NCBI GenBank assembly: GCA_027068075.1
Contig: JAMOUJ010000006.1
Coordinates: 346,706-410,705 of the forward strand
DNA length: 64,000 nucleotides
Origin: Candidatus Aminicenantes bacterium
GTDB lineage: Bacteria; Acidobacteriota; Aminicenantia; S016-38
Direction of reading: 5' to 3'
The notes under the pieces: model-generated
Databases searched by the model: none
Seen by the model: the letters and a program-made list of their open reading frames with translations, nothing else
Told to the model about the DNA's origin: nothing
Shown here: positions 8,743-59,539 of the stretch, one piece after another
Position numbering within the stretch: position 1 is the first letter of the stretch
Layout: every line of letters starts with the position of its first letter
Made by a program: the position numbers and the translations under genes

Positions 8743-9834
8743 TTACAGGTTAAGAAGCAGGAAAACCGCTGCCGAGGAGACGAGGAGGAAGGGCAGGGAA
8801 TAGGCCTGGAAGCGGAGATAGGCCTTCCTGAGACCTCCTAAGTTGAGGGCTAAGACATTGGCCAGGGAGGCTATAACCAGGCCGTTTCCACCTATGTTTA
8901 CGCCGTAGGCAATGGCCTTCCAGGCGGAGGAGACCTTCCCCAGCAAAATGGCTGCCGGAACATTGCTTATTAACTGAGAAAGCACTATGGCGGACAGGTA
9001 TGTTTCCCCGGTGCCCCTTAAGAAATGAGTTTCCAGGAGGTGCTCTAAGGGGAAGGTTTCGCAGAGCAGGTGGACATCCATGAAGAGCACCACAAAGAGC
9101 ACTATGAGGAGCCAATTGGTCCTGGCCAGAATTTTCGGGAAGACTGCCGCATAAAGGAGAACCACCGCCACCAACGCATAATAGGTAAGGTCCTTTTCCA
9201 CCGCCAGGAGGAAGAAGACCATGAGGGCCGCAGAAAGGGCCAGGAGTTTTCCGTTCACCCGGCGGATGTTTTTCCCGGTCTTTGCCTCTATGATTCCCTT
9301 TCCGAAGGCGAAGAAGGTGAAAATGAGAAGAAGGGCCAGGGTGATGGCCCAGGCCGGGGCCATTTTCGCCACGAATTTCCAAAAGGGTATGTTCCACCTG
9401 TGCCACAGAAATATGTTCTGTGGATTCCCTATGGGAGTGAGGAAGGAGCCGGCGTTGACGGCCATGGCTTCAAAAATCACCAATTTTCCCATGTCGTTTT
9501 CCAGTTGTTTCCCCAGGCTCAGGGTTATGGGGACCACCACGAAGAGGGTAACATCGTTGGTGAGGAAGGTGGAAAGGAGGGCCGATAAGACGACGAGAAA
9601 AAGGGCGAGGTTCCTTTCCCGGTGAAATTTAAAGGCGAGTTTTCTGGAAAGGCTTATAAAAAAACCGCTTTCCTCCATGGCGGTGGTTATCAGGAGAAGC
9701 CCCGCCAGCGTGAAAATGGTCTCCCAGTGGACCGAGTCCGGCAACGATAGGATGGAGGAAGGGTGTAGGAGAGCGAGCACCAAAAAAGTTCCCAGGGAGG
9801 CCAGGAAAAAACCGTCCTTCAGGGTATCTCTCAT
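8743..9834 (-). CDS. ArsB/NhaD/CitMHS-superfamily anion permease
   Basis: Polytopic membrane protein with the TNDVTLFVVVPI re-entrant-loop motif characteristic of this superfamily. 363 aa. Confidence 0.5.
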   Translation of the reverse strand: MRDTLKDGFFLASLGTFLVLALLHPSSILSLPDSVHWETIFTLAGLLLITTAMEESGFFISLSRKLAFKFHRERNLALFLVVLSALLSTFLTNDVTLFVVVPITLSLGKQLENDMGKLVIFEAMAVNAGSFLTPIGNPQNIFLWHRWNIPFWKFVAKMAPAWAITLALLLIFTFFAFGKGIIEAKTGKNIRRVNGKLLALSAALMVFFLLAVEKDLTYYALVAVVLLYAAVFPKILARTNWLLIVLFVVLFMDVHLLCETFPLEHLLETHFLRGTGETYLSAIVLSQLISNVPAAILLGKVSSAWKAIAYGVNIGGNGLVIASLANVLALNLGGLRKAYLRFQAYSLPFLLVSSAAVFLLLNL

Positions 9835-9868: not shown

Positions 9869-11605
9869 TTAGTTTTGTTTCTCCCCTGTTTTTTCCTCCT
9901 CCAGAAAGAGATCCCGGAGTTCTCCGAAGGGCTTTCCACCGTAGCCGGCCTTGTTCAGAACATCTATGTAGTGGGTGATGTGGTCAATGACCCTTTCCGA
10001 AGGAGCGTATTTGAAGGTGACCCTCTTGAGGAACAACTCCGCTTCCTCGGGAACGATCCCCATTATTTCGTAACTCAACCTTGCCGCCTGTGACGGGTTT
10101 TTTACCACCCAGTCTATGGCTTTTTCCGCCTCCTCCAGGAAAATTCTGGAAACCTCCGGATACTCCCGCAGGACTTCCCCCTTGAAGAGAATCCCGGCGT
10201 TGGGAAGGTTTCCTTTGCCCGGGAAGAGTTTTTCCCACAGGTCCGCATATCTTATGGCCTCCTTCACCTGGCCCTTGCCCTCAAAGATGGCGAAACTGGC
10301 TTCCGGTTCCCTGAGAAGTCCCACCTCCGCCTCACCCTTCACCAGCATCTCCTTTATGTCCGCAGGCCTGCCGAAGGGATTGCCGAAGGCAAATTCAAAT
10401 TCCTCGGGGTCGTAGCCCAGGGCCTTCATCAGGAAGGTGGTTACCGCATAGGGAGGGGCTGCTTTAATCAGGGGCAGGTGGATGGGTTTTCCCCTGAGGT
10501 CTCCGAAATCCCTGGCTTCAAAGCCCCGGGTCAGGATGAAGAAATTGTCCCAGACCACCACCGCCTTCATCTTTATGTCCAGACCCTTCTGGTAGAGTTT
10601 AGCCACCGCCGCCACCGCGGAAAAACTTATGTCCGCCCGGCCGTTGATTATCCACCCCAGGTGTTTCTCCGTTTTATCCCATATCTTGAGTTCCTCTATT
10701 TTTATCAGGTCCATGAGCCGCTTTGACTGGAGAAGGCGCATGATGATCGGATAGACCACCGGGGTGGCGGACTGGATTACCAGGGGAACCCTTCCTGAAA
10801 GGGTTTTCTTTCTTTCCCTTTTGACTTCCTTTTTCTTGTAGAAGTAAACATGGTGCTCCAGGGGACCCCGCTTTTCTATGTGGACTTCAAAGCCCAGGGG
10901 TTCAATCATGTTTATCAGGGGAGTGGGGAGGAAGTATTGGATTATCCTGAAGCCCTCCCCGGGAGGGGTTTCGTTGGCCTTTTTAATGATGGCGGAAAAG
11001 GGGTCTTCCCTCCAGCCCCGAACATCCAGGACTTCAAACTCCTCCTTCCTCTCCAGCCAGTTTTTCTCCTCTCCTTCTTCTTTGGGGTTTACATAGAGGA
11101 TGTGGGTGTTGAAGGAAGGGTTTTCGTAGTGAAAGGAATAACCTTCCTCCTGGAGCATGTTTATCAGGGGAGCCGGGTAGAAGTCGTTGACCACCTTGAG
11201 AATCTGGTCCCTTTCCAGGGATCTGAGGCTCCTCAGAATCTCGGGGAAAAAGAAATCGTCCCTATCCCTGACATCCATCACCACTATTTGCTTGGCTTCC
11301 TTCACCCAATCGGGCTTTTCCCCTTCCGGGAGTGTTTTTCCCACCACCTCCCTGAGGCAGTCCGGGGCGTGTTTTGCCAGTTCCTCCTCCGTGCCTACTT
11401 CTCTGTTGAGACGGTGTAGAACCTCGCAGAGGGATAGTCCTCCTATTTTCGCCACATCGGCGAAGGTGGCCCATCGGGCCACCGCCTTGAAGATGAGGCT
11501 GTTGTTCAATTTTTTAAATTTTGGGGAAAGGGATATGAGAACCTCCTTCAATTGAGGATATTTCTCCAGGGCATCCTTTACCCTGGTGCTGGCAAGGATT
11601 ACCAT
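9869..11605 (-). CDS. Multidomain cytoplasmic protein: N-terminal DUF1858-like domain, two internal approx 60-aa repeats (DUF2249/TusA-like), C-terminal NMT1/SsuA-like periplasmic-binding-fold domain
   Basis: The N-terminus resembles the 79-aa DUF1858 protein at 39611..39850. The internal repeat is visible directly: YPAPLINMLQEEGYSFHYE.. and LPTPLINMIEPLGFEVHIE... The C-terminal 300 aa is an SBP-like fold (LLREPEASFAIFEG). There is no signal peptide. Confidence 0.4.
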   Translation of the reverse strand: MVILASTRVKDALEKYPQLKEVLISLSPKFKKLNNSLIFKAVARWATFADVAKIGGLSLCEVLHRLNREVGTEEELAKHAPDCLREVVGKTLPEGEKPDWVKEAKQIVVMDVRDRDDFFFPEILRSLRSLERDQILKVVNDFYPAPLINMLQEEGYSFHYENPSFNTHILYVNPKEEGEEKNWLERKEEFEVLDVRGWREDPFSAIIKKANETPPGEGFRIIQYFLPTPLINMIEPLGFEVHIEKRGPLEHHVYFYKKKEVKRERKKTLSGRVPLVIQSATPVVYPIIMRLLQSKRLMDLIKIEELKIWDKTEKHLGWIINGRADISFSAVAAVAKLYQKGLDIKMKAVVVWDNFFILTRGFEARDFGDLRGKPIHLPLIKAAPPYAVTTFLMKALGYDPEEFEFAFGNPFGRPADIKEMLVKGEAEVGLLREPEASFAIFEGKGQVKEAIRYADLWEKLFPGKGNLPNAGILFKGEVLREYPEVSRIFLEEAEKAIDWVVKNPSQAARLSYEIMGIVPEEAELFLKRVTFKYAPSERVIDHITHYIDVLNKAGYGGKPFGELRDLFLEEEKTGEKQN

Positions 11606-24993: not shown

Positions 24994-26982
24994 ATGTTTC
25001 TGGATGAGTATTCCTTTTCCCTTTTCCTCCTCCTATCCTTCACCTTTATACTTGCCCTTTTTCTTATCCGCCTCAAAAATAAGGAAAAGTCCACCTATTT
25101 TCTTATCGGCTCCTACGCCAATATTTTCATGCTGTTTCTCTCCGGTTTTCTCGGTCTTTTGTTCCCTGACGGGCTGGGGGATAAATTTATCCTCCTCCAG
25201 TATGTGTTCGTTCACCTATCCCTGGTTTTTTTCATCCTTTTCGTCTACCATTTCCAGGGCCTATACCGGGGGAGGGAAGCCACGAAGATTTTTTACCTTT
25301 CCCTTCTTATTTTTTCGTTAATTTCCCTTTACATCTTGAAGTTGATATTTTCCAGGAAGGCGGTAAAGGGGGAGGAAATAGCATGGATCGCCATCGTGGC
25401 GGGTCTGGAGTTTCTTTGGGTCCTGGTGGTTCTGGTGAGGAAAACCCTCTTCTTCTTCCGGGGTGGAGCGAAGGATAAATCAAATCTTTTGAAGGCCAGA
25501 AGAACGAAAGTTTTTGCCTATTTGATGATTATTCCCATCGCCTTGAGTTTTTTGGTTTACCTGGGCTATCGGGGCGTTATCTCCAAAGAGGTACACAATG
25601 TATTTTTCACAGAGGGAACGGCCCTGTTCTTTTTCCTTTTCGTTTTAATGTATTTGAATCATTCCACCATCCCCGTGAGTTTGGTTTCCAAAATAGTAGG
25701 GATAACCCTGGTTTCGGCCTTGATCCTCCTGAATTTTACGGGTATGTTCTTCGTCTGGGAGGCCCGGAAGGCCTACGACAGCCTGAACCTTCAAAGGGTG
25801 AAACTCTGCCGGGAAAAACTGAGGACGGGTTCCCTGAAGGAACTTCCCTCGGATGTAAAGTACATTCTAAGGTTGAGGGGAGAAGAGTTTTTCCCCGGGG
25901 ATTTTGAAATAGTTTATTCTGCCCCCGGATGGGGAGGTACGGATTTTTTAAAGGAGGACAACCGCCTGAAAAGGGGGCGCAGGGTTAAATTCTTTTCCAG
26001 GGTGGAGAGGCTCGTGAAAAATACCCTCCACAGGGATCCGATGTATTTTTCCTATTTTTTCCCGTTGAGGGGAGGGGTTTATGAGGTGGGAATTTCGTCC
26101 ATGGCCTACAGGAAGCACATCCATCGTCTGGTTCTCAAGTTAATTTCGCTTTCCCTTTTCATATTCCTCTCCATTGTCTTTGTATTTCCCCGATTCTTTA
26201 AAAACTGCATAATAAATCCCGTGGACCAACTTCTCGGGGCCGCCCGGGAGATAGAAAGGGGAAACCTCAACCTGGAGGTTCCTGTGATGGTCCGCGACGA
26301 ATTTGGAATCCTCTCCGAAGCCTTTAACAACATGGCTTCTTCCCTGAGAAACTCCCGGGAGAAAATCCTGGAATACAGCAGAACCCTGGAGAGAAAAGTG
26401 GTTGAGAGAACCAGGGACCTTATGGAGAAAAACAGGATGCTTTCCCAGATGAAAAGGAGGCTGGAGGAGGCGGCCATCACCGATCCTTTGACCGGCCTTC
26501 TCAACAGGAGGGGGCTTTATCAACTCATAGAGCACGAGATGCGCAGGGCCAGGAGAAAGGGGAGTTGCTTCAGTTTGATAATCTGCGACATAGACGATTT
26601 TAAAAGAATCAACGACACCTATGGTCACGATTGTGGAGATAATGTTTTGCGAACCATAGCCCGTCTCCTTGAGGACAACTCCAGAAAGGTGGATCGGGTG
26701 GGCAGGTGGGGTGGGGAGGAATTTCTTATGGTACTTCCGGAAACCCCTCTGGACGGAGCCGTTGAGGTGGCGGAGAAGATAAGGAGGGTGATTGAGGCCA
26801 GGGAATTTCATTATGGAAAGGTATCTTTCCGGGTTACCATGACCTTCGGTATTTCCCTGTTTTCCTCTGCTACCCCATCCCTCCATCACTGCCTTAAAGA
26901 AGCCGACGACGCCCTCTACCGCGGTAAGTTTCTGGGGAAAAACACGGTGGTGGTATGGGAAAGGAATGTTCAGGAGTCCTGA
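24994..26982 (+). CDS. Sensor diguanylate cyclase: polytopic membrane sensor, HAMP, then GGDEF (GGEEF variant)
   Basis: About 8 TM N-terminal region. HAMP-like segment (EFGILSEAFNNMASSL). DPLTGLLNRRG...RWGGEEFLMVLP. Confidence 0.8.
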   Translation: MFLDEYSFSLFLLLSFTFILALFLIRLKNKEKSTYFLIGSYANIFMLFLSGFLGLLFPDGLGDKFILLQYVFVHLSLVFFILFVYHFQGLYRGREATKIFYLSLLIFSLISLYILKLIFSRKAVKGEEIAWIAIVAGLEFLWVLVVLVRKTLFFFRGGAKDKSNLLKARRTKVFAYLMIIPIALSFLVYLGYRGVISKEVHNVFFTEGTALFFFLFVLMYLNHSTIPVSLVSKIVGITLVSALILLNFTGMFFVWEARKAYDSLNLQRVKLCREKLRTGSLKELPSDVKYILRLRGEEFFPGDFEIVYSAPGWGGTDFLKEDNRLKRGRRVKFFSRVERLVKNTLHRDPMYFSYFFPLRGGVYEVGISSMAYRKHIHRLVLKLISLSLFIFLSIVFVFPRFFKNCIINPVDQLLGAAREIERGNLNLEVPVMVRDEFGILSEAFNNMASSLRNSREKILEYSRTLERKVVERTRDLMEKNRMLSQMKRRLEEAAITDPLTGLLNRRGLYQLIEHEMRRARRKGSCFSLIICDIDDFKRINDTYGHDCGDNVLRTIARLLEDNSRKVDRVGRWGGEEFLMVLPETPLDGAVEVAEKIRRVIEAREFHYGKVSFRVTMTFGISLFSSATPSLHHCLKEADDALYRGKFLGKNTVVVWERNVQES

Positions 26983-36685: not shown

Positions 36686-37556
36686 GCATTCTCCGGGAAA
36701 GGCGTATGGCGGTGAGCATGCTTCCCTCGGAGGCTTCCCCTTTTCCCGCTATGTCAAAGGCGGTGCCGTGGCACGGGGAAGTTCTGGGCCAGGGAAGGCC
36801 GAAGGTCAGTTCCGCCCCGTCTTCCAAGTGAAGGAGTTTAAAGGGAGCGAGGCCTACATCGTGGAAGAAGGCCAGGATCCATCGGGATTCCACCTCGCCC
36901 CGGAGGAAAACAGTATCCGACGAGAGGGGGCCTTCCAGGGCAAAGTCCTGAATGATGGGGCCTATGACCTCTATTTCCTCCCTTCCCATTTCTCCGCCTT
37001 CGCCGGCGTGGGGATTTACCGAGGATACGATGAGTTCGTCCCCGGGGAAGAACCTCTCAAGGCTGGGGAGGAGGAGGTTGAGAAATTCCCTGAGTTCTTC
37101 CGGGGTTATCTTTTCCAGGGCCCTTTTCAGGGGGAGGTGGTGGGTGAAAAGGACCACCTTCATTCCCCCGGACCAGAATCCCATCACCACCCTTCCAAAC
37201 TTCTTTTCAAAAAACTCCGTGTGTCCCAGGAAATCGTGACCTGCCGCCACCCATGCGTGTTTGCTTACGGGACCGGTGACCAGGGCAGAGGCGGGTTCGG
37301 ATTTTAAAATTTCAAGAGATTTGTTGAAGTAAAGGAAGGAGAGTTCTCCGTGGGGTTTTCCCACCTGAATTTCCGCCTCCGGCTTTGGGTCCACGAATCT
37401 GTACCGCCTCCATTTAAACATCTTCAGGTTTTGAGCCGTCTGTTCAAAGGCCTTACGGGAACCGACGATTAAAAAATCGTCCTCCACCTTTTCCAGGGCT
37501 TTTATTATTACTTCGGGACCTATTCCGCCCGGGTCCCCTCCAGTTATGACGATCAT
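36672..37556 (-). CDS. pdxA: 4-hydroxythreonine-4-phosphate dehydrogenase
   Basis: TGGDPGGIGPEV, GPVSKHAW..GHTE, NPHAGEGGE and PRTSPCHGTAFDIAGKG motifs. Confidence 0.8.
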   Translation of the reverse strand: MIVITGGDPGGIGPEVIIKALEKVEDDFLIVGSRKAFEQTAQNLKMFKWRRYRFVDPKPEAEIQVGKPHGELSFLYFNKSLEILKSEPASALVTGPVSKHAWVAAGHDFLGHTEFFEKKFGRVVMGFWSGGMKVVLFTHHLPLKRALEKITPEELREFLNLLLPSLERFFPGDELIVSSVNPHAGEGGEMGREEIEVIGPIIQDFALEGPLSSDTVFLRGEVESRWILAFFHDVGLAPFKLLHLEDGAELTFGLPWPRTSPCHGTAFDIAGKGEASEGSMLTAIRLSRRMLNRL

Positions 37557-37837
37557 TTCTTAAGGGCTTCCTCGTCTTTAAGGATGTATTTAATTGCGTG
37601 CTTGTACACCAGGAGGTTGGGTTCACCTTCCCTGTGAACTTTTATCACCTTTTCGTCGTACCATTCTATCCTTCCACGGATCACCTCTCCATCCTGGAAA
37701 ACTATTATCATGGGGTTTTTATTCCGCATTTGCTTCAGATAGTAGTAATTTTCCGCGTGGGTCTGGTAAGAGGGCTTATCCTTCTTTACCCGGGTCGGGT
37801 GAGAAGGGGCCATGGGCGGTATCAATTTTCTTCCCAT
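37553..37837 (-). CDS. hfq: Divergent Hfq-like (Sm-fold) RNA chaperone with N-terminal extension
   Basis: Sm1-like ..IVFQDGEVIRGRIEWYDEKVIKV.. and Sm2 LLVYKHAIKYI, matching Hfq YKHAI. Strong RBS AAGGAGG sits 6 nt before the ATG at 37837. The stop is ATGA-coupled to pdxA. The track ORF starts 16 codons further upstream with no RBS. Confidence 0.55.
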   Translation of the reverse strand: MGRKLIPPMAPSHPTRVKKDKPSYQTHAENYYYLKQMRNKNPMIIVFQDGEVIRGRIEWYDEKVIKVHREGEPNLLVYKHAIKYILKDEEALKK

Positions 37838-37896
37838 TTTCAACCTCCTTAATGAAATTATAATTTGTTGAGAGAAAAAAATCAAATTAAAATTTA

Positions 37897-38781
37897 TTGA
37901 TGTTAATTGTGAAAGAACTCAGCATTAAAACCAGTGCTTTCCATATAATTCGGCAGGTTTCCTTTAAAATTAACCAGGGAAGGGTGAAAGTGCTTTTGGG
38001 AGAATCCGGAGCCGGAAAATCAACCCTGGGACTTTTTCTTTCCGGAGTATTGAAGCCCGGGCTTTCCTGGGAGGGGGAGGTTTTTTATCATGGAGAAAAA
38101 ATCAACCCTTTGGGGGAGGACTGGAGGGGAAGAACCGCCGGGTTGATCCTCCAGGACCCTTATTCTTCCTTTGATCCCAGACAGAGGATTCTTTCAGCCC
38201 TGGTGGAACCGTTGATGGTCCATCTTTCCTTGTCCAGGGGTGAGGCGGAGGACCGGGCCCTTTACTGGCTTCGCCAGGTGGAATTTCCCCTGGAAAAAAG
38301 GTGGAGGTTTCCCCACGAATTGAGCGGTGGACTTCTCCAAAGGGCCGCCGTGGCCGCCGCCCTGATCCTGGAACCCGGCGTACTGATAGCCGACGAGCCC
38401 ACCTCAGCCCTGGATCCCCCCCTGCGGGCCGGGATAAGGGAACTTATTAAGAAATTTTCCCACAAAAGGCATGTGCTTTACATAACCCATTTCGTGGAGG
38501 ATGCCCTCTTCTTCGGCGAGGACTATCTGGTCCTTTACGGGGGACTGGTCATGGAAGAGGGCCCCCGGTTGCGTCACCCCTATTCAAAACTTCTCATGAC
38601 TTCGGTGGTAAAGCCGGGAAAGGAACTTCCAGAAGTTACTGGGTTTTCCCCTCACCCATCTTCCCTTCCCCCGGGATGCCCCTTCCGACCGCGCTGTGGC
38701 GAGGCTTCCGATAGGTGCTATGAACTTCCACCGTTAAAAAAAGCGGGCGAAAACTTGGTGAGGTGCTGGAATGTCCGTTGA
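37897..38781 (+). CDS. ABC transporter ATP-binding protein, OppD/DppD-like with C-terminal Cys-rich oligopeptide-ABC domain
   Basis: Walker A GESGAGKST, signature LSGGLLQR, Walker B LIADEP. C-terminal PGCPFRPRCGEASDRC. Confidence 0.8.
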   Translation: MMLIVKELSIKTSAFHIIRQVSFKINQGRVKVLLGESGAGKSTLGLFLSGVLKPGLSWEGEVFYHGEKINPLGEDWRGRTAGLILQDPYSSFDPRQRILSALVEPLMVHLSLSRGEAEDRALYWLRQVEFPLEKRWRFPHELSGGLLQRAAVAAALILEPGVLIADEPTSALDPPLRAGIRELIKKFSHKRHVLYITHFVEDALFFGEDYLVLYGGLVMEEGPRLRHPYSKLLMTSVVKPGKELPEVTGFSPHPSSLPPGCPFRPRCGEASDRCYELPPLKKAGENLVRCWNVR

Positions 38782-44977: not shown

Positions 44978-45715
44978 TTAGAATGTAAACCCAACTTCCC
45001 CGTGGAAACTTAGGCCGTTTATGAAACCCACGGAAACCCCTCCGCTGAGGTGTTCTCCGCTGTAGAAATTGATGCCCAGCAAAATCTCCATCGGAATCCT
45101 CGGCCGAATTTTCTCGTCGCTCTGTCCTTCAAGGTCCTGAAATTTTTCGGTGAACTTGACGCTTCCCCAGAAGTAGTCAAAGTAAAGGCCGATGTAGGGT
45201 TCTATGTTTTCCTGGCCCTCGTACATGGCCAGAACTCCCAGCCTGAAGTCCCAGAAGTGAACCTTCCCTTCCACCGAACCGGTTAAGTAGTCGGAGCGTT
45301 CCACCCCCCACCGGTGGGAGGAAAGGTTGTAGGATATTTCCGGGTTCAAGACCAGGGAAACCTCGTCGGAAAAAACATAGGGTTCCCAATATGCCCCTGC
45401 ATACACGGAATAACTGGGCTTGGAGTAGGTGGTGGATACGGAAATGGGCAAGGAGGTGAAGGTGAGTTCCTCCCCGAAGGAAGTTTTACCGTACATGATT
45501 CCGAAGTAGAATTCGGTGAATTCGTTGATCAGCACCGAATTTTTAAGCCCCACCAATGTAAGGTTTAGAGAGGTTTCCTTTTCTCCTATTTTTGCTTTTA
45601 AACTCCTGTAACTTCCCCTGAGGCTCAGGGTGTATTCCAGGCCTTCCCCGGCCACTAAGAAGATTGAGAGGAGTAAAAACAAAATCGCTTTTTTCATTTC
45701 TCCTCCTTTTCGCAA
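44978..45715 (-). CDS. Outer-membrane beta-barrel protein
   Basis: Signal peptide. Alternating amphipathic strands. C-terminal ...GEVGFTF with terminal Phe. Confidence 0.5.
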   Translation of the reverse strand: MRKGGEMKKAILFLLLSIFLVAGEGLEYTLSLRGSYRSLKAKIGEKETSLNLTLVGLKNSVLINEFTEFYFGIMYGKTSFGEELTFTSLPISVSTTYSKPSYSVYAGAYWEPYVFSDEVSLVLNPEISYNLSSHRWGVERSDYLTGSVEGKVHFWDFRLGVLAMYEGQENIEPYIGLYFDYFWGSVKFTEKFQDLEGQSDEKIRPRIPMEILLGINFYSGEHLSGGVSVGFINGLSFHGEVGFTF

Positions 45716-46368
45716 TTAATTTTTGCTTCCCAGATTTTCCTCCAGTTTCCCTCCCATGTGTATAGTTTACACTTTATTTCGTTCCGGGAAACTTCCATGT
45801 TCCATTGGGCTTTTCCGCTGCCCTTTAGAGTGAAAATTCTGGTAATTTTACGGCCCTCCTCTTCCATTATAAGCATGAGCCTGGCCTTGTCAACCAGGGA
45901 ATACGAAGCCTCTATGAGGAGTTTTCCAGCCCTGCAGGAATATCTTTCCACCTCTATTTTCCCCGATTTGTGGGGCAGGGGTTTCATCTTTCCAGGTATT
46001 ATTCCCATGGCCAATCCGTAAAACCTAAAAACCCTGCCCTCCAGGGGGTAAACCCTCCACCTATCGGGAAAGTCCTCTTCCCTTCCCGCAAGGAATTTAA
46101 CCACCTCCTCCCTGTCCACCGTAATCTGGAGGACGGGGATCCTGAACTTCCTCAGAACCAGAGAAAACTTTTCCCCGTAGGGATATGTAAAAGCCAGGGA
46201 GGAAAGGAGAACCGAGGCCCGGGGCACCAGGTCGCCCCTTTTCCATTCCCCTGCCTCGCAACTCAGCACCACCTCTTTCTTTAATGCGAATATCCTGGGT
46301 TGCTGGCATCCGTAGTTGAGGAGGACCTGGTGGAATTCCATCAAAAGGGCGAGGATCACACCGCTCAC
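45694..46368 (-). CDS. Hypothetical protein (224 aa)
   Basis: ORF in an operon context with stop/start overlaps on both sides. I recognise no family. Confidence 0.35.
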   Translation of the reverse strand: MSGVILALLMEFHQVLLNYGCQQPRIFALKKEVVLSCEAGEWKRGDLVPRASVLLSSLAFTYPYGEKFSLVLRKFRIPVLQITVDREEVVKFLAGREEDFPDRWRVYPLEGRVFRFYGLAMGIIPGKMKPLPHKSGKIEVERYSCRAGKLLIEASYSLVDKARLMLIMEEEGRKITRIFTLKGSGKAQWNMEVSRNEIKCKLYTWEGNWRKIWEAKINCEKEEK

Positions 46369-54224: not shown

Positions 54225-54256
54225 CGAGGAGGTGGGAGTGAGAAGGATTCAGGAGG

Positions 54257-54514
54257 TCAGGTTGGGTTTTGGGGTTTGGTTTTGGGGGGAGAATCTTTGG
54301 TTTTGTTTTTAGGGGAGTGTTTTGTTCCGTTGTCTTTACCCTTGTAGTCCGTAACATACCATCCGCTTCCCTTGAAGTGGATGGCAGGAGGTGAAAGGAT
54401 TTTCTTCAGGGGTCCGCCGCATTTGGGGCAGACCTTTAACGGCTCGTCGTCAAATTTCTGAATGACTTCAAATCTATATCCGCACTTCTCACAAGTGTAT
54501 TCGTAAAGCGGCAT
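54257..54514 (-). CDS. FmdB-family zinc-ribbon protein
   Basis: MPLYEYTCEKCG...CPKCGG: the two CxxC pairs of the FmdB putative-regulatory family. Basic, low-complexity tail. Confidence 0.7.
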   Translation of the reverse strand: MPLYEYTCEKCGYRFEVIQKFDDEPLKVCPKCGGPLKKILSPPAIHFKGSGWYVTDYKGKDNGTKHSPKNKTKDSPPKTKPQNPT

Positions 54515-54552
54515 CTTTACCTCCCGGCAAAATTATAACATTCTGGTCAATA

Positions 54553-54580
54553 TTGACAAGGGAGCCAATTTTGATAAAAT
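54553..54580 (+). promoter_or_regulatory. Sigma70-type promoter for tRNA-Arg (TTGACA-16-TAAAAT), with the -35 inside the palindrome GTCAATATTGAC
   Basis: TTGACA at 54553..54558 and TAAAAT at 54575..54580. The tRNA 5' end is 10 nt downstream. Confidence 0.55.
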
Positions 54581-54590
54581 ACACTTCGGT

Positions 54591-54664
54591 GCGGCTGTAG
54601 CTCAACAGGATAGAGCGTGGGATTCCTAATCCCAAGGTTGTGGGTTCGATTCCCGCCAGCCGCA
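54591..54664 (+). tRNA. tRNA-Arg (anticodon CCT)
   Basis: Hand-folded cloverleaf. 7-bp acceptor stem (GCGGCTG/CAGCCGC), D stem GCTC/GAGC, anticodon stem TGGGA/TCCCA with loop TTCCTAA (CCT), T stem GTGGG/CCCGC with TTCGATT loop, discriminator A. No encoded CCA. Confidence 0.9.
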
Positions 54665-54669
54665 CTTAA
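54621..54669 (+). repeat. Direct repeat copy 1 (49 bp): tRNA-Arg 3' half plus 5 nt; attL-like
   Basis: GATTCCTAATCCCAAGGTTGTGGGTTCGATTCCCGCCAGCCGCACTTAA. It is identical to the copy at 56339..56387. Confidence 0.85.
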
Positions 54670-55031
54670 CCTCCTTCCTGCTCCGCTATGATTTTTCTCC
54701 AACAAAATAAGGAACTCCCTCTCTTATGTGCTACATTTATGTCATGCGGATGATGATCTTTCTTCCGGGTCTATGCTTTCATCAGAATTTTTGCTTCAAG
54801 CTTTCGTATAACTTTGTTAAGGAGGATTTAAAGGATGCCTAAATCCTCTCTCTTTTTTCGAAAACTTCCTTATTGCGTCCTGGGGAAATCTATATTGCCA
54901 AGAATCTTTGGTAATGGACTATATGTTTGGTTTGCTCAACTCTTTTAATGAGCTTAGGGCAAGGCAATCTTTTCCTCAATAGAGAAAAAAGAGGATGAGA
55001 TATTACCTCGTTTACAAGGCTTCCATCGAGC

Positions 55032-55466
55032 TTACTTTATCATTTTTATTATAGGAAGAACCAATGGAGGTAATCCTGCTCTTACGGTTAAATCATGGAC
55101 TAGTTGACGGAAATATGGCCAAATATGAAGAATTAGGGTACTTTTAGCAAAAATCTCAAACATTTTCTTTGTGATAGAAACGCTGGTTCTATAATGAACC
55201 TTATATGAGGCATTTATTGCGAACTTTTCCCCGTTATTTCTTTCCGCCAACAAGAAAAAAGAGATATAAGCTGCGAAACCTTCTTCCGTTTTTTTGTAGC
55301 TGGTTTCTTCGTTTAAGGTAAGCTCAACTCCTGTAGGCTTAAATTCTTCATCTTTTTCCATAGAACATTTGATTAGTTGAATGCTATGCAGCTCCAATCC
55401 TTTTATGAAGTCTGCATATTTTTCCCTGAATTTCTTATCTAATTTCACGCTGCCCCCTCCTCCCAT
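55032..55466 (-). CDS. SecB-like chaperone (TAC-system chaperone candidate)
   Basis: Collinear similarity to SecB: LELHSIQLIKCSME vs SecB FQIQRIYTKDISFE, and C-terminal ILHIWPYFRQLVHDLTVRAGLPPLVLPII vs SecB [29 protein letters not shown]. 144 aa. It overlaps the hicB stop by 22 nt. Confidence 0.6.
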   Translation of the reverse strand: MGGGGSVKLDKKFREKYADFIKGLELHSIQLIKCSMEKDEEFKPTGVELTLNEETSYKKTEEGFAAYISFFLLAERNNGEKFAINASYKVHYRTSVSITKKMFEIFAKSTLILHIWPYFRQLVHDLTVRAGLPPLVLPIIKMIK

Positions 55467-55972
55467 TTATCTGTATATTCTATCTTAAGCGGTCGTTCTT
55501 CTATCATCCTCCACTCAAATTCTTCTAAGGTGTGGTGAAAGATATCTTTCAATTCTTTCTTGAGCTCATTTACTATTTCTTTCTTAAGATTATCTACCAT
55601 CTCTCTTTCTTTTAGAGCCTCTGAAAGTAAAGCTACAACTAATTGATTCAAGCTTATTCCTTCTCTTTTAGCTCTTTGAACTAACTTGCGATGAATGTAT
55701 TTGGGAATTCTTACAAGGAATTTTCCGCTGTATTCTTCCATCTCATAAGGAAGCGGAATCTTTCTGCCCATTTCTAAGGCTGTTTCTATCCACAATTCTT
55801 GAGCTTCTCTTATAGCATTGATTACATCTTCATAGCTGTCTCCTTCGGTCATACACCCAGGAAGTTCTGGGATTTTTGCAAAGTAGCCTTTTTCTTCTGG
55901 AATAATCACAATAGAGTAAGGTAAACTCATGAAATACTTAACTTTTTCCTTAATGTCATTTTTGGCTCTCAT
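55445..55972 (-). CDS. hicB: HicB-family antitoxin (UPF0150 RNase-H-like N-domain plus RHH-type DNA-binding domain) with about 50-aa C-terminal extension
   Basis: YSIVIIPEEKGYFAKIPELPGCMTEGDSYEDVINAIREAQELW is the UPF0150/HicB fold signature. SGKFLVRIPKYIHRKLVQRAKREGISLNQLVVALL is the HicB C-terminal DNA-binding motif. It is followed by a charged extension KEREMVDNLKKEIVNELKKELKDIFHHTLEEFEWRMIEERPLKIEYTDKWEEGAA. Confidence 0.8.
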   Translation of the reverse strand: MRAKNDIKEKVKYFMSLPYSIVIIPEEKGYFAKIPELPGCMTEGDSYEDVINAIREAQELWIETALEMGRKIPLPYEMEEYSGKFLVRIPKYIHRKLVQRAKREGISLNQLVVALLSEALKEREMVDNLKKEIVNELKKELKDIFHHTLEEFEWRMIEERPLKIEYTDKWEEGAA

Positions 55973-56213
55973 ACCATTCCTCCAAATCTAGTAAATCTCT
56001 GAGATGTTTTATGTATATCTTTTCTACCATTCGGCCCTTCCTAATTCTTATCGTTATCTCATATTCCCCTTTCACATAAATGAAATGATCTCCTCTTACC
56101 CGTCCTCTTTTATATCCAAAAAATTTAAGCACTGTTTCGACCTCCTCTTTTCTCATTTGGGAAGGTAAGTTTAACATCTTTCTTACAAGTTTTATTACCT
56201 TGCTCTTTGACAC
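55956..56213 (-). CDS. hicA: HicA-like mRNA-interferase toxin candidate (85 aa)
   Basis: Small basic protein immediately upstream of and overlapping hicB, the canonical hicA-hicB order. FFGYKRGRVRGDHFIYV loosely matches the HicA GSHH region. GTG start with a GGAGG RBS. The family assignment is weaker than for hicB. Confidence 0.45.
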   Translation of the reverse strand: MSKSKVIKLVRKMLNLPSQMRKEEVETVLKFFGYKRGRVRGDHFIYVKGEYEITIRIRKGRMVEKIYIKHLRDLLDLEEWYESQK

Positions 56214-56224
56214 TCACACCTCCA

Positions 56225-56252
56225 TTATACTAAATATGATACCAGTGTCAAC
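56225..56252 (-). promoter_or_regulatory. Sigma70 promoter (TTGACA-16-TATAAT) driving the hicA-hicB-secB-like operon
   Basis: Minus-strand TTGACActggtatcatatttagTATAATggaggtgtgaGTG. Consensus hexamers are immediately followed by the GGAGG RBS and the GTG start, giving a very short leader. Confidence 0.6.
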
Positions 56253-56338
56253 ATTTTGGTCTGCTCAGATGATTAGATGAAAGTTTAGTAAATTTTTTGG
56301 GTTAAGTAAAGGCATATTTGCGGTAAGCTACCTCCTTC

Positions 56339-56387
56339 GATTCCTAATCCCAAGGTTGTGGGTTCGATTCCCGCCAGCCGCACTTAA
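56339..56387 (+). repeat. Direct repeat copy 2 (49 bp): partial duplicate of tRNA-Arg 3' half; attR-like
   Basis: Identical to 54621..54669. The upstream 20 nt (GCGGTAAGCTACCTCCTTC) looks like a decayed tRNA 5' part with the D-arm deleted. It cannot fold into a cloverleaf. Confidence 0.85.
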
Positions 56388-56788
56388 ATTGAGTCCCCCA
56401 GGTCTTCCCGATAGATCGCCTTCACCCAGTAATGAACTTCCTCCCCCGCCGACGGAGGGTTAAAATCCACCAGGGCCTCTTCTCCCTCAAAACCCCTGAG
56501 TCTCGCCGTCCATTCTCCGGCGGGGGTTTTGAGGAGGAATTCTTCCCCTTCCTTGAGGTCCCCTGGAATAAGGTGGCGGGGGATTCTCTTTATTTTCCTC
56601 TCGTCGTAAGGAACCCTTATCCAGAATTCCTTTTCTTCCCCGGGTTTCATATCCCTGAGTTTTTCCTCCAGTTCCGGCCAGACCTCTCCGCTTCCTATCC
56701 TGAGTTTCAGCGGGCCCTGGAACCGGGAATTGCCCAGGACCCGCCCTTCCCGGTCGGTTATCCTGTATTCAAGGACGAGAACGATCAC
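56384..56788 (-). CDS. FKBP-type peptidyl-prolyl cis-trans isomerase (SlyD/FkpB-like)
   Basis: VLEYRITDREGRVL...GPLKLRIGSGEVWPELEEKLRDMKPGEEKEF, the FKBP domain pattern. 134 aa. Confidence 0.75.
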   Translation of the reverse strand: MIVLVLEYRITDREGRVLGNSRFQGPLKLRIGSGEVWPELEEKLRDMKPGEEKEFWIRVPYDERKIKRIPRHLIPGDLKEGEEFLLKTPAGEWTARLRGFEGEEALVDFNPPSAGEEVHYWVKAIYREDLGDSI

Positions 56789-58272
56789 TTTATTTCTTCC
56801 CAGATGGCCACCTCAATAACCCTGTAATCGGTGCTTCTGGCCTTCACTTCGTGGGAGAAGTTATAGGTCCAGCCCAGGGACGGCAGGGGGCCGACGGCTT
56901 CGGTGGTTACCAGAAACTTCGCCGGGAGAAAGCCGAAGCCTGTGGCTGCGTCCAGGGGATTGGGTTTGTCCCCGTGCTGGGCGTCCACGGGAACCCATCC
57001 GTAGCCCGGGAAGTAAACCTCGGCCCATCTGTGAAAGACCCAGTCGTAGCCCGTCCCCCTCTCTACCACGGACCCCACATATCTTGCGGGGATTCCTGCA
57101 GCCCGGAGAAGGGAGATGAAGGAAAAGGTGTATTCGGAGCAGGAGCCGGAACCCCTTTTCAGGACCACCGGGGCAGGGTTCCATCCCCCCGCCAGTTCGT
57201 AGTGAAGTCTTTCTCCCAAAAACTGGTAAATTTTCCTCACCTTCCGATAGTAGTTGTTTTCCCCCTTCAGGACTTGGTCCACCAGTTTTCTTATGTAAGG
57301 GTTTTTGATGTCGTATTTTTCTCCGTCCCTGAGATACAGTTTTTTTACCCTCTCCGGGATCTCTCCTTTCACGCTGGAGGGGGAAAGGAAGTAGTGAACT
57401 TCGTGGAGGACCACATCCACCACCAGGCTACAGTAGCGAACCTCTCCGGGTTTTATGTCCTTGAGACGGCAGGTGGCTATTTTTTGATCGTCTTCCACGG
57501 TGTATGTGGGGGAGAAGTCGGGTTTTATTTTCAGTATTTCCTGGAAATCCCTGTTCCTGGGCACGGCGAAGTGGAAGACCGCCTCCTGAACCCCTCCTCC
57601 GCCGGCTATTATCCCCTGGCGGAGGGTTATCCTCCATCTTTTCCCCGGTCCCTTTTTCACCTTTTTCTGAAAGAAGGAGTTTATGTCAACTTCGGCAATT
57701 CTGCCGGAAAAGTCCAGGATTTTTGCCTTTCCCCCTTCGTAGGAAAGGCCCACGGGAAGAGGGAGGTCCAGGGGAAAGAAGTTGAGCACCCAGCCGGTTT
57801 CCGGATCAATTTGATAGAGGAGTTTTTTCTTAGAATCCAGGGCCCAGATGTATCCATCCCCGTAGTCGGCGGCGGAAACGGTCCTGGAGGGGGAGGGGAA
57901 GGCGCCGAAGGAAGTCCCGTCCTGGGGGGAAAGTTTGTATATTTTACTGGAAGAAAAGCCCCAGAGGCATTTCCTTTCCGGGTCCCAGGCCACCGCCAGA
58001 AGGGGAGAAGGTCCCTCCAGGAGAACCCTCTGAAAGATACCGTTTTCCGACAGGGCTGCGATTTTGTTCTCCATCCTGGATACCACCCACCACCTTTCCC
58101 CGTCCCATGTGAGGTCCGTGGGAAGAACCAGGTCAGCCCTCAGTTTTTTCCCGTTTACTTCCAGGTGGGAATCCAGGTAAAGGGTGGCTTTGAAATTCCC
58201 TTTCCAGAAAAGCCCCACCGGTTTTGAAGCCCACAAAGACAAACTGAGCAGAATTATTAATGCCCTTCTCAT
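56785..58272 (-). CDS. Exported transglutaminase-like cysteine-protease-fold protein with N-terminal beta-propeller-like domain
   Basis: Signal peptide. C-terminal GSGSCSEYTFSFISLLRAAGIPARYVGS ... VFHRWAEVYFPGYGWVPVDAQH, the Cys-His-Asp transglutaminase-core motifs. Confidence 0.65.
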   Translation of the reverse strand: MRRALIILLSLSLWASKPVGLFWKGNFKATLYLDSHLEVNGKKLRADLVLPTDLTWDGERWWVVSRMENKIAALSENGIFQRVLLEGPSPLLAVAWDPERKCLWGFSSSKIYKLSPQDGTSFGAFPSPSRTVSAADYGDGYIWALDSKKKLLYQIDPETGWVLNFFPLDLPLPVGLSYEGGKAKILDFSGRIAEVDINSFFQKKVKKGPGKRWRITLRQGIIAGGGGVQEAVFHFAVPRNRDFQEILKIKPDFSPTYTVEDDQKIATCRLKDIKPGEVRYCSLVVDVVLHEVHYFLSPSSVKGEIPERVKKLYLRDGEKYDIKNPYIRKLVDQVLKGENNYYRKVRKIYQFLGERLHYELAGGWNPAPVVLKRGSGSCSEYTFSFISLLRAAGIPARYVGSVVERGTGYDWVFHRWAEVYFPGYGWVPVDAQHGDKPNPLDAATGFGFLPAKFLVTTEAVGPLPSLGWTYNFSHEVKARSTDYRVIEVAIWEEIK

Positions 58273-58333
58273 CTATCCCTCCTTTTTCTTAATCAACTAT
58301 TCCATTATAATCCACTCCGCTTACAAAGAAAAC

Positions 58334-58362
58334 TTGACAAATTCCCCACAAATCCTTAAATT
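58334..58362 (+). promoter_or_regulatory. Sigma70-type promoter upstream of metK (TTGACA-17-TAAATT)
   Basis: TTGACA at 58334..58339 and TAAATT at 58357..58362. AGGAGG RBS at about 58383. The leader is too short to hold a SAM riboswitch. Confidence 0.5.
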
Positions 58363-58393
58363 TTTTATTTAACCCTAAATCAAGGAGGTTTCC

Positions 58394-59539
58394 ATGGGAA
58401 GGAGACATTTTTTTACATCAGAATCCGTAACCGAAGGCCATCCCGATAAAATAGCGGACCAGATTTCCGACGCCATCCTTGATGAGTTGATCAAACAGGA
58501 TCCCCAGTCCAGGGTGGCGGTGGAAACCCTGGTAACCACCGGGCTGGCCTTTATAGCCGGCGAAATAACCACCAGAGCCTACGCCGACCTTCCCTCCATA
58601 GTCCGCAGGACCATAAAGGAGATAGGATACACCAGGGCTAAATTCGGCTTTGACTACGAAACCTGCGCCGTAATATCCTCCATCCACGAGCAGTCTCCGG
58701 ATATAGCCATGGGGGTGGACACCGGGGGAGCCGGTGATCAGGGGATAATGTTCGGATACGCAGTGAGGGAAACCGAAGAACTCATGCCCCTTCCCATAAT
58801 GCTGGCCCACAAACTGGCCATGAGGCTGGCCCAGGTTCGGAAGGAGAAGGTGGTGGATTTCCTTCGCCCCGACGGAAAAACCCAGGTTACCGTAGAATAC
58901 GAGGACAAGAAACCCATCAGGGTGGATGCCATAGTGGTTTCCACCCAGCACAACGAAAAGGTTACTGCCGGGGAGATAAGGGAGGCCATAATAAAGCATG
59001 TGATAACCCCCATAATCCCTTCGGATATGATAGACGGCAACACCAAGTATTACATAAACCCCACGGGGAAATTCGTCATAGGTGGTCCCATGGGGGATAC
59101 CGGCCTTACCGGAAGAAAAATTATAGTGGACACCTACGGGGGAAGGGCCTATCACGGAGGAGGATGCTTTTCCGGAAAGGACCCCACCAAGGTGGACCGT
59201 TCAGCCTCCTACATGGCCCGTTACATCGCCAAGAACATAGTGGCGGCGGGATTGGCAGACGAAGTTTCCGTTCAACTGGCCTACGCCATCGGCGTGGCCC
59301 AACCGGTTTCCATCTTCGTGGAAACCTTCGGCACCGGGAAGGTTCCAGAGGAAAGGCTGGAAAAGGCCGTCAGGGAGGTCTTCCCTCTTACCCCCAGGGG
59401 CATGATTGAGCACCTGGACCTTCTCCGACCCATCTACAGGAAAACCGCCGCCTACGGTCATTTCGGGAGAAAGGATCCGGACTTCACCTGGGAAAAAACG
59501 GATAAAATAAAGGACCTTCTGGAGGCAACCAAGGCATGA
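58394..59539 (+). CDS. metK: S-adenosylmethionine synthetase
   Basis: [40 protein letters not shown] and GDQG motifs. 381 aa. Confidence 0.95.

Follow-up and report, generated by a model that had tools for sequence, protein, structure and literature searches.

To our knowledge, tyrosine integrases are the only integrases that target tRNA genes. Their insertions leave a regenerated tRNA gene and a displaced gene fragment (PMC4383910), and three sublocations within tRNA genes (tDNAs) are recognized, at the anticodon loop, the T loop, and the 3' end (10.1101/2020.11.02.365908). Elements that are flanked by att sites but lack integration and transfer genes, the cis-mobilizable elements (CIMEs), are known from decayed streptococcal integrative conjugative elements (ICEs) and integrative mobilizable elements (IMEs) (Guedon et al. 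2017, PMC5704250). Such elements can be mobilized in cis once an incoming element has accreted at one of their att sites. Toxin-antitoxin-chaperone (TAC) systems of the HicAB-SecB type have also been described and tested, and a C-terminal extension of the antitoxin, the chaperone-addiction (ChAD) region, gives them their chaperone dependence (Bordes et al. 2016, PMC5105189). Here we describe a 1.7-kb islet that lies between two repeat copies at a tRNA-Arg(CCT) gene of Candidatus Aminicenantes bacterium and carries a single operon of this TAC type. The locus spans positions 54591-56387 of the 64,000-nucleotide stretch that we analyzed (the window), which is taken from contig JAMOUJ010000006.1 of assembly GCA_027068075.1.

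The islet resembles CIMEs (PMC5704250) in retaining both an intact attL and an intact attR, left by site-specific insertion into the 3' end of a gene that is conserved, in having no integration or transfer genes, and in carrying a maintenance module, as CIMEs can. It differs in being far smaller (1.7 kb and one operon), in its host, which belongs to an uncultured Aminicenantes lineage, and in having neither an accreted partner nor detectable remains of a parental ICE or IME, such that its derivation by decay is something we infer. With the tDNA islands catalogued by the Islander algorithm (Hudson, Lau and Williams 2015, PMC4383910) it shares an intact tDNA with a displaced direct 3' fragment, foreign composition, absence from relatives, and a block of identity that runs from the anticodon stem and loop to the 3' end (the anticodon-loop sublocation class), although unlike those islands it has no tyrosine integrase of its own. 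Because the integrase filter of the Islander algorithm rejects integrase-less candidates (PMC4383910), islets of this kind are systematically missing from that catalogue. We consider the islet to be probably a CIME-like, nonautonomous remnant of a larger element that is likely stabilized by addiction.

An insertion at the 3' end of tRNA-Arg(CCT)

The tRNA-Arg(CCT) gene (54591-54665, plus strand) is intact and is the sole tRNA gene of the window according to both ARAGORN and Rfam (RF00005, 72.3 bits); an initial annotation of this DNA correctly took it to be complete but placed its end at 54664. The anticodon stem is formed by tRNA positions 28-32 and 40-44, and the loop by positions 33-39. A 49-bp direct repeat, identical at 49/49 nucleotides, extends from tRNA position 31, which belongs to the 5' strand of the anticodon stem, to 4 nt beyond the tRNA 3' end. 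The left copy, the attL core (54621-54669, plus strand), comprises 45 nt of tRNA followed by TTAA, and the right copy, the attR core (56339-56387, plus strand), is the displaced 3' part of the tRNA and includes the stop codon of the neighboring FKBP gene. The identity block thus extends from the anticodon stem to past the 3' end and therefore fits the anticodon-loop sublocation class (10.1101/2020.11.02.365908). The exact duplication of the tRNA 3' half had been described at these same coordinates, and it is neither imperfect nor, within the window, widespread; a 29-nt sub-pattern of the repeat is found there in exactly two copies with up to three mismatches tolerated, compared with zero expected. 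Rfam recognizes only a T-arm fragment at attR and, when applied to the locus in E-value mode and to the whole window, nothing besides the tRNA, SAM (S-adenosylmethionine) riboswitches included. We found no basis for the proposal that the 20 nt preceding the right repeat resemble the decayed 5' part of a tRNA; local alignment yields no more than GCGG, with a score of 8 that 98% of shuffled sequences (mean, 9.8) equal or exceed.

A scan of species-representative genomes identified three related Candidatus Aminicenantes metagenome-assembled genomes (MAGs; L006, L007, and L008), whose transglutaminase-like neighbors are 81%, 74%, and 73% identical, respectively, to that of the window. All three have the gene order MetK, transglutaminase-like, FKBP, tRNA-Arg(CCT), FmdB zinc ribbon, and DinB, without an islet, and in 3/3 the stop codon of FKBP adjoins the 3' end of the tRNA. 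The att sequence is present in exactly one copy in each of the three genomes, versus two in the window, and the tRNA-Arg(CCT) gene is 100% identical across all four. The empty-site comparison proposed in the initial annotation thus finds the tRNA directly beside FKBP, and the same genes with a host-like composition are not present at this locus in any of the three relatives. We therefore conclude that the 1718 bp made up of the islet and one repeat copy are a lineage-specific insertion.

The composition of the islet is foreign to its surroundings. Its unique part (1669 bp) has a GC content of 0.361, compared with 0.527 +/- 0.021 (minimum, 0.464) for other 1669-bp windows of the 64 kb, and is the lowest of all (z = -8); GC bins are 0.34 to 0.39 within the islet and 0.50 to 0.58 in the flanks. 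Similarly, GC at third codon positions (GC3) is 0.34 to 0.36 in the three islet genes, versus 0.54 to 0.66 in the genes for DinB, FmdB, FKBP, the transglutaminase-like protein, and MetK. Both profiles agree with the AT-rich DNA and A/T-rich codon usage, against GC-rich flanks, that had originally drawn attention to the region. Together with the single att copies at the empty sites, they support site-specific integration of foreign cargo into the tRNA 3' half. Milder GC dips are seen elsewhere in the window, at 25001-26000, 37001-38000, and 45001-46000 (0.46 to 0.48 in 1-kb bins) and in the intergenic region upstream of metK (58100-58400, 0.43).

The operon is separated from the att cores by two noncoding arms. 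The AT-rich arm between attL and the chaperone gene (54670-55031, 362 bp, GC 0.39) corresponds to the approximately 367 bp of noncoding DNA noted previously beside the tRNA, and measures 366 nt from the tRNA end and 362 nt from the repeat. It could represent the P' arm of an attP site, or decayed DNA. There are stops in all six of its frames, six-frame translations have no match in Pfam, and the best match among PHROGs, to one of unknown function, is at E=0.06 and was disregarded; nor is there similarity by blastn or tblastx to the approximately 100 loci that we fetched, or any Rfam match. The arm between hicA and attR (56214-56338, 125 bp) holds the operon promoter and would be the P arm; only its first 38 nt, on the hicA side, are conserved, with 84-89% identity to two loci carrying related modules (L012 and L013; see below). 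Joining the two arms (487 bp) through one core reconstructs an attP of 536 bp, all of it noncoding, with the junction ...CTACCTCCTTC + 49-bp core + CCTCCTTCCTG..., i.e. ...GGTAAGCTACCTCCTTC + core + CCTCCTTCCTGCTCC..., and the empty attB junction is reconstructed as ...ATAGAGCGTGG + core + ATTGAGTCCCCCAGG... Repeated 11-mers in the reconstructed attP are not above shuffles (7 pairs vs 3.4 +/- 3.3), and a 13-mer, TTTGGT(C/T)TGCTCA, is present in both arms.

The islet encodes no recombinase. Pfam and NCBIfam-level domain scans of its three open reading frames (ORFs) detect no recombinase, integrase, excisionase, relaxase, or phage domain, and six-frame translations of the noncoding 362 bp contain neither a recombinase remnant nor any other decayed gene, in accord with the lack of an integrase, excisionase, or mobility gene reported initially. 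With no integrase of its own and no phage, conjugation, or mobilization genes in the 1669 bp, it is not an autonomous prophage, ICE, or IME. A tyrosine-recombinase motif screen of the window gave spurious matches only; this was a rough screen and not a domain search, using a relaxed regular expression and two control fragments. The same rough approach revealed no recognizable tyrosine recombinase within 10 kb of the loci carrying relatives of the module. The islet DNA has no match among GenBank phages or PLSDB plasmids (blastn, distant mode), and a search of the repeat against phage sequences, as had been suggested, gave no match to a 44-nt att sequence in IMG/VR. Across the collections searched, the islet has no near-identical copy, whether at a different site or in a different host.

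A hicA-hicB-secB operon as sole cargo

The three ORFs of the islet lie on the minus strand and overlap by 17 nt (hicA and hicB) and 22 nt (hicB and the chaperone gene; 4 nt with the 138-residue start described below). They share a single promoter (56224-56251, minus strand), TTGACA-16-TATAAT, which is a perfect sigma-70 consensus (12/12) and is followed by GGAGGTG and a GTG start; its spacer carries an imperfect palindrome, of which L012 has a perfect version, ATGATATCAT. As judged from domain content and gene order, the cargo is a tripartite TAC module of the HicAB-SecB type, in which the activity of the toxin and the addiction to the chaperone are predicted features. The addiction module that had been proposed to stabilize the islet is not a simple pair but a set of three genes that includes a chaperone.

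The SecB-like chaperone gene (55032-55466, minus strand) has a maximal ORF of 144 codons, and public gene calls use a GTG start at 55448 to give a product of 138 residues. The Pfam SecB match falls just short of its threshold (E=3e-5, 24.4 bits; cut-off, 26), but a 10-sequence profile has a single significant match in the Protein Data Bank (PDB), to 5MTW_C, the SecB-like chaperone Rv1957 of a Mycobacterium tuberculosis TAC (E=2.7e-6). An AlphaFold2 (AF2) model (mean confidence score, pLDDT, 79) retrieves chains A-D of 5MTW as the top four Foldseek matches (E ~1e-7, TM ~0.7), followed by the canonical SecB structures 1OZB, 1FX3, and 1QYN. The protein also matches the PADLOC model PD-T4-9_C (E=9e-8), from a system since renamed CmdTAC, and falls far short of the NCBIfam equivalogs for export SecB (13-19 bits compared with cut-offs of 143-223). 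It thus has a SecB fold and is nearer to SecB(TA) than to export SecB. The family is large, with 1171 representatives at E <= 1e-3.

The antitoxin gene (55445-55972, minus strand) encodes a 175-residue HicB with an N-terminal HicB/UPF0150 domain, a ribbon-helix-helix (RHH) domain, and a C-terminal extension. Pfam matches to HicB_lk_antitox (3e-12) and HicB (2e-11) are above their cut-offs and are accompanied by Arc/FitA-type RHH models, and the HicB profile finds the solved HicB structures 6U0I and 6HPB (E ~5e-5). The 53-residue tail that follows the RHH domain (residues 123-175) includes F145, F152, W154, Y166, and W170, and is variable yet present in relatives; on the basis of its sequence we regard it as a candidate ChAD region. 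The first gene (55956-56213, minus strand) starts with GTG and encodes an 85-residue protein with a G-D-H motif at residues 41-43, which we assign as a divergent HicA-family toxin through a transitive profile link: an iterated local profile connects it with 35 ORFs that precede hicB at TAC loci (E 1e-11 to 1e-26), and 10/35 of these match Pfam HicA_toxin, the best at 4e-10. A G-[SD]-H motif is kept among its four closest relatives, and its single-sequence AF2 model (pLDDT 64) consists of a helix, three or four strands, and a helix. Among chaperone loci of this family, hicB lies immediately upstream of the chaperone gene in 58 of the 86 that we recovered, and this hicA is present as well in 30/58; most of the remaining loci are cut by contig ends.

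Among characterized systems, the islet operon can be compared with Mmet-TAC of Methylomonas methanica MC09 (PMC5105189), with which it shares the order hicA-hicB-secB-like, an extension of HicB past the DNA-binding domain, and a small dedicated SecB-like chaperone. The islet differs in that its toxin is a divergent HicA below the Pfam cut-off, and the likeness is one of described features and not of sequence alignment. The closest solved relative of the chaperone, by both profile and fold, is that of M. tuberculosis HigBA1-SecB(TA) (Rv1955-1957; 5MTW), and the PADLOC match links it to Escherichia coli CmdTAC/PD-T4-9. By analogy with these two systems and HigBAC, the aromatic-rich antitoxin tail would be the expected ligand of the chaperone, whereas the toxin-antitoxin pair of the islet is HicAB, and not HigBA or CmdTA.

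Relatives of the module and sequences flanking the islet

Close homologs of the chaperone are few, with only three among 5.8 billion proteins, and a search with HicB adds a few more. In one of these loci (L013), where the chaperone is 55% identical, the same operon is followed by 118 bp, a convergent tRNA-Arg(CCT) that differs from that of the window at two positions, and then an unrelated NfeD-like gene; the contig ends 106 nt upstream of hicA, placing the distal end outside it. A second locus, represented by L012, L097, and L098 (99.8% identical to one another), has a SpoU methylase gene, 113 bp, the hicA-hicB-secB-like genes, 184 bp (1287-1470), and a convergent tRNA-Lys(CTT), and there is neither a tRNA-Lys fragment nor an integrase on the distal side in L012/L097. 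The chaperone of L065 is more distant (29% identical) but lies in the same layout beside a tRNA-Arg(TCT), without a tRNA repeat within 317 bp upstream and without an integrase. Adjacency to a tRNA is otherwise absent among the approximately 90 other loci. We considered whether linkage to a tRNA is a general trait of TAC modules with chaperones of this family and rejected this, as only four independent loci of approximately 90 have it. Nonetheless, with nine tRNAs in approximately 470 kb of the other loci, the chance of a convergent tRNA within 400 bp is, by a rough estimate, far below 1% per locus, and to that approximation the clustering at tRNA ends in the nearest clade is therefore not random.

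Other relatives occur in varied settings. In an IMG/VR contig (L094:1995-3364, the same as L042:9054-10423) that represents a phage or prophage of high GC content, a HicA-HicB-SecB-like TAC separates the gene for the large terminase subunit from the portal gene, an insertion that resembles a moron gene cassette. We considered whether L042/L094 might have a TAC-integrase-tRNA layout and rejected this; the region is a phage structural module (terminase, portal, and capsid), and the 69-nt 'tRNA-Val' that ARAGORN reports within the structural genes may be spurious. The module adjoins MmeI-type restriction-modification genes in L100 and L101 and a helicase/methylase/HigB cluster in L099, and lies among housekeeping genes in L102-L104. 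In L099, a direct repeat of at least 300 nt with 97% identity (8793-9092 and 10596-10895, 1803 bp apart) reflects a partial second copy of the chaperone gene with its downstream DNA, which is followed by a RadC-like N-terminal fragment and then by the full hicA-hicB-secB set, an arrangement suggesting that the TAC unit has undergone tandem duplication or recombination. A RadC-like N-terminal fragment (PF20582, UPF0758_N) is found directly upstream of hicA at two independent loci (L099:9432-9731 and L101:249-578), both of which neighbor restriction-modification or helicase genes. In L102, L103, and L104, one identical HicB (protein P0163) is encoded together with hicA and a 165-residue chaperone on nine contigs from several NCBI MAGs, with at least two different upstream neighbors (a YkuD-domain gene in L103, and others in L102 and L104).

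Several features of the flanking sequences are also evident. The FKBP ORF (56384-56788, minus strand) has its stop codon (56384-56386) within the right repeat, and the encoded protein is four residues longer at its C terminus (...YREDLGDSI) than in the empty-site relatives (...YREEI), where the FKBP stop overlaps the final tRNA base. In an alignment of window 56384-56430 with L006:11842-11877, L007:11848-11883, and L008:11845-11880, a 13-nt insertion, TGAGTCCCCCAGG, adjoins attR. This insertion and the altered FKBP tail may be a scar of integration, or may be unrelated to it. On the other side, the bases that follow attL (TTAACCTCCTTCCTGCT, window 54666-54685) resemble the chromosomal sequence found just past the tRNA where the site is empty (for L006, TAAATCTCCTCCCTGTA). 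Identity between attP and an Aminicenantes-type attB might once have been longer than 49 bp, although the resemblance could alternatively have arisen by chance in a CT-rich stretch. Upstream of the tRNA, back-to-back promoters at 54532-54580, between the FmdB gene and the tRNA, match the consensus at 11/12 positions, one promoter per strand, and each has the extended -10 TG; the TTGACA box is kept in L006-L008, and these are probably the native tRNA promoter and a divergent fmdB promoter. Farther upstream, a G/T-rich run (GGTTGGGTTTTGGGGTTTGGTTTTGGGGGG, window 54240-54300) codes on the minus strand for the proline/lysine-rich tail of FmdB (KNKTKDSPPKTKPQNPT), and the same run inflates the N terminus of the DinB ORF (458 residues in the maximal ORF versus 394 in the public call).

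Origin of the islet and its significance

How the islet came to its present form can be reconstructed in outline. A small foreign element would have entered the Aminicenantes lineage by site-specific recombination of the tyrosine-integrase type, targeting the anticodon-loop-to-3'-end segment of the chromosomal tRNA-Arg(CCT) gene with a matching segment that it brought along. Recombination would have restored a complete tRNA gene at attL, with the chromosome's own 3' part ending up at attR, beside the FKBP gene, and the residue of the element would be the two 49-bp att cores, 487 bp of noncoding arms, and one self-promoted TAC operon. By analogy with the studied TACs, the chaperone may bind the aromatic C-terminal extension of HicB and shield it from proteolysis, with HicB neutralizing HicA and probably repressing the promoter via its RHH domain; were the locus lost, or the chaperone titrated (as phage structural proteins might do), HicB would then be degraded and HicA set free. 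The operon could have been kept because its deletion is costly (addiction), because it contributes to antiphage (abortive-infection) defense, or both, and either would explain its persistence after the loss of all else. Antiphage triggering of TACs has been shown in the studied systems (E. coli CmdTAC/PD-T4-9 and HigBAC), and a defense role for the islet operon is only an analogy.

Toxin-antitoxin modules are expected survivors of island decay. For this reason, and because the nearest relatives of the module sit bare beside tRNAs and the islet has no second copy or second host in the collections searched, we favor a remnant; the bare modules at tRNA ends in L012/L097 and L065, with neither repeat nor integrase, look like later stages of the same decay. 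The initial annotation had left the choice between a degraded remnant and a cargo-only islet mobilized in trans, and the evidence leans toward the former without closing the question. Several points weigh against our interpretation. The 362-bp arm holds no integrase pseudogene or decayed gene, such that a history as a remnant has left no positive trace, and a deletion that spared both att cores and approximately 490 bp of arms would be rather tidy. Perfect 49-bp cores and un-ameliorated GC suggest a recent event, with little time for decay, and a 536-bp noncoding attP is the right size for a functional site and fits a complete mini-element equally well. The HicA assignment is transitive; the direct match to Pfam HicA_toxin (PF07927) is at E=1e-3 and 19.5 bits, compared with a cut-off of 27, and neither Foldseek nor PDB profiles built from 4 and 35 sequences give a significant match, although 1WHZ recurs weakly. 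Finally, the public copies of the region are all 100% identical and so provide no population-level information.

A different view of the same architecture is that nothing has been lost, and that the islet is a complete minimal nonautonomous element, an attP with a TAC cassette forming a 1718-bp circle, which is moved in trans by the integrase of another tRNA-Arg(CCT) element, as a miniature counterpart of integrative mobilizable elements. The perfection of both att cores would be expected of such an element, as would arms without gene remnants and an un-ameliorated composition, and the 536-bp attP region is compatible with the ~250-bp attP of tyrosine integrases (PMC4383910); the 13-mer shared by both arms and the recurrence of close module relatives at tRNA 3' ends in other organisms can be read in the same way. 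Nonetheless, we think this rather unlikely, as the collections searched yield neither a second copy, a copy at a different site or in a different host, nor any related islet whose ends match, those tRNA-adjacent relatives that can be checked (L012/L097 and L065) have no repeat, arm-type repeats are not enriched over shuffles, and the rough screen of the window revealed no candidate helper integrase. The stronger proposition, that the islet is an active mini integrative element using the integrase of an unrelated resident, and that such tRNA mini-islands commonly spread TACs or small defense cassettes, strikes us as improbable. An already reduced islet might instead have come from a related strain, taken up by transformation and brought in by homologous recombination within the conserved sequences on either side (tRNA/FmdB and FKBP). 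The tRNA, 100% conserved across four species, and the syntenic flanks offer ample homology for this, an islet without an integrase would need no local recombinase, and both att copies have the host-type G in the T arm (A in L013), so that the immediate donor would have shared the tRNA 3' half. However, import only shifts the att duplication to a donor, which must itself have undergone an integrase event, and no such islet-bearing donor is known, the site being empty in all three available relatives; we regard such a history as doubtful.

The two remaining explanations deny the insertion itself. A low-GC foreign fragment, or a free 1.7-kb circle with 49 bp of tRNA sequence, could have been wrongly threaded into the contig. 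By exact-protein look-ups, the region is also found on an ENA contig of 145 kb (k141_152324) and on Logan contigs of run SRR7968104; in an 8-kb comparison, these public copies match the window at 100% identity, and they possibly come from the same sample. The Logan k=31 assembly breaks into three contigs at the repeat, with the islet a separate contig of 1729 bp (1669 + 2 x 30) whose two ends overlap the same 49-bp node, and a circle would give the same graph. However, the k=141 ENA contig crosses both junctions, which counts against a mis-join because it requires k-mers spanning the 49-bp core plus unique sequence on both sides, and the same islet proteins are found on a 541-kb contig in another public record; an assembly artifact is thus very unlikely. 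We do not take the three-contig split as evidence for excision. It is the expected behavior of a k=31 assembly at a 49-bp repeat and is uninformative, as integrated, excised, and empty forms cannot be told apart in assembly graphs built with short k, and a k=31 graph cannot reveal circles. Alternatively, the locus could be native, its ordinary chromosomal genes having been bracketed when the tRNA 3' half was duplicated locally, with no horizontal transfer. The repeat itself is all that speaks for this, and it is effectively refuted by the empty sites in L006-L008 and by GC and GC3 values far outside the host range; homologs of the module in phage, defense-island, and other unrelated contexts likewise leave it scarcely credible.

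Taken as the probable remnant of a larger element, the islet combines two kinds of entity that are already known, a tDNA islet that is flanked by att sites but has no integrase (a CIME or decayed island) and a TAC module of the HicAB-SecB type; what is new is the host lineage, the very small size of one operon, and a description at base-pair resolution with empty sites. As it stands, the locus confirms known principles and does not change them, although if excision were true the islet would be a very small trans-mobilized integrative element and of greater interest. It provides an example of a tRNA island shrunk to one addiction/defense operon with both att sites retained, and extends HicAB-SecB TAC modules to the uncultured Aminicenantes. 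More broadly, catalogues that require an integrase probably under-count small cassettes for defense or addiction that lie at tRNA genes.

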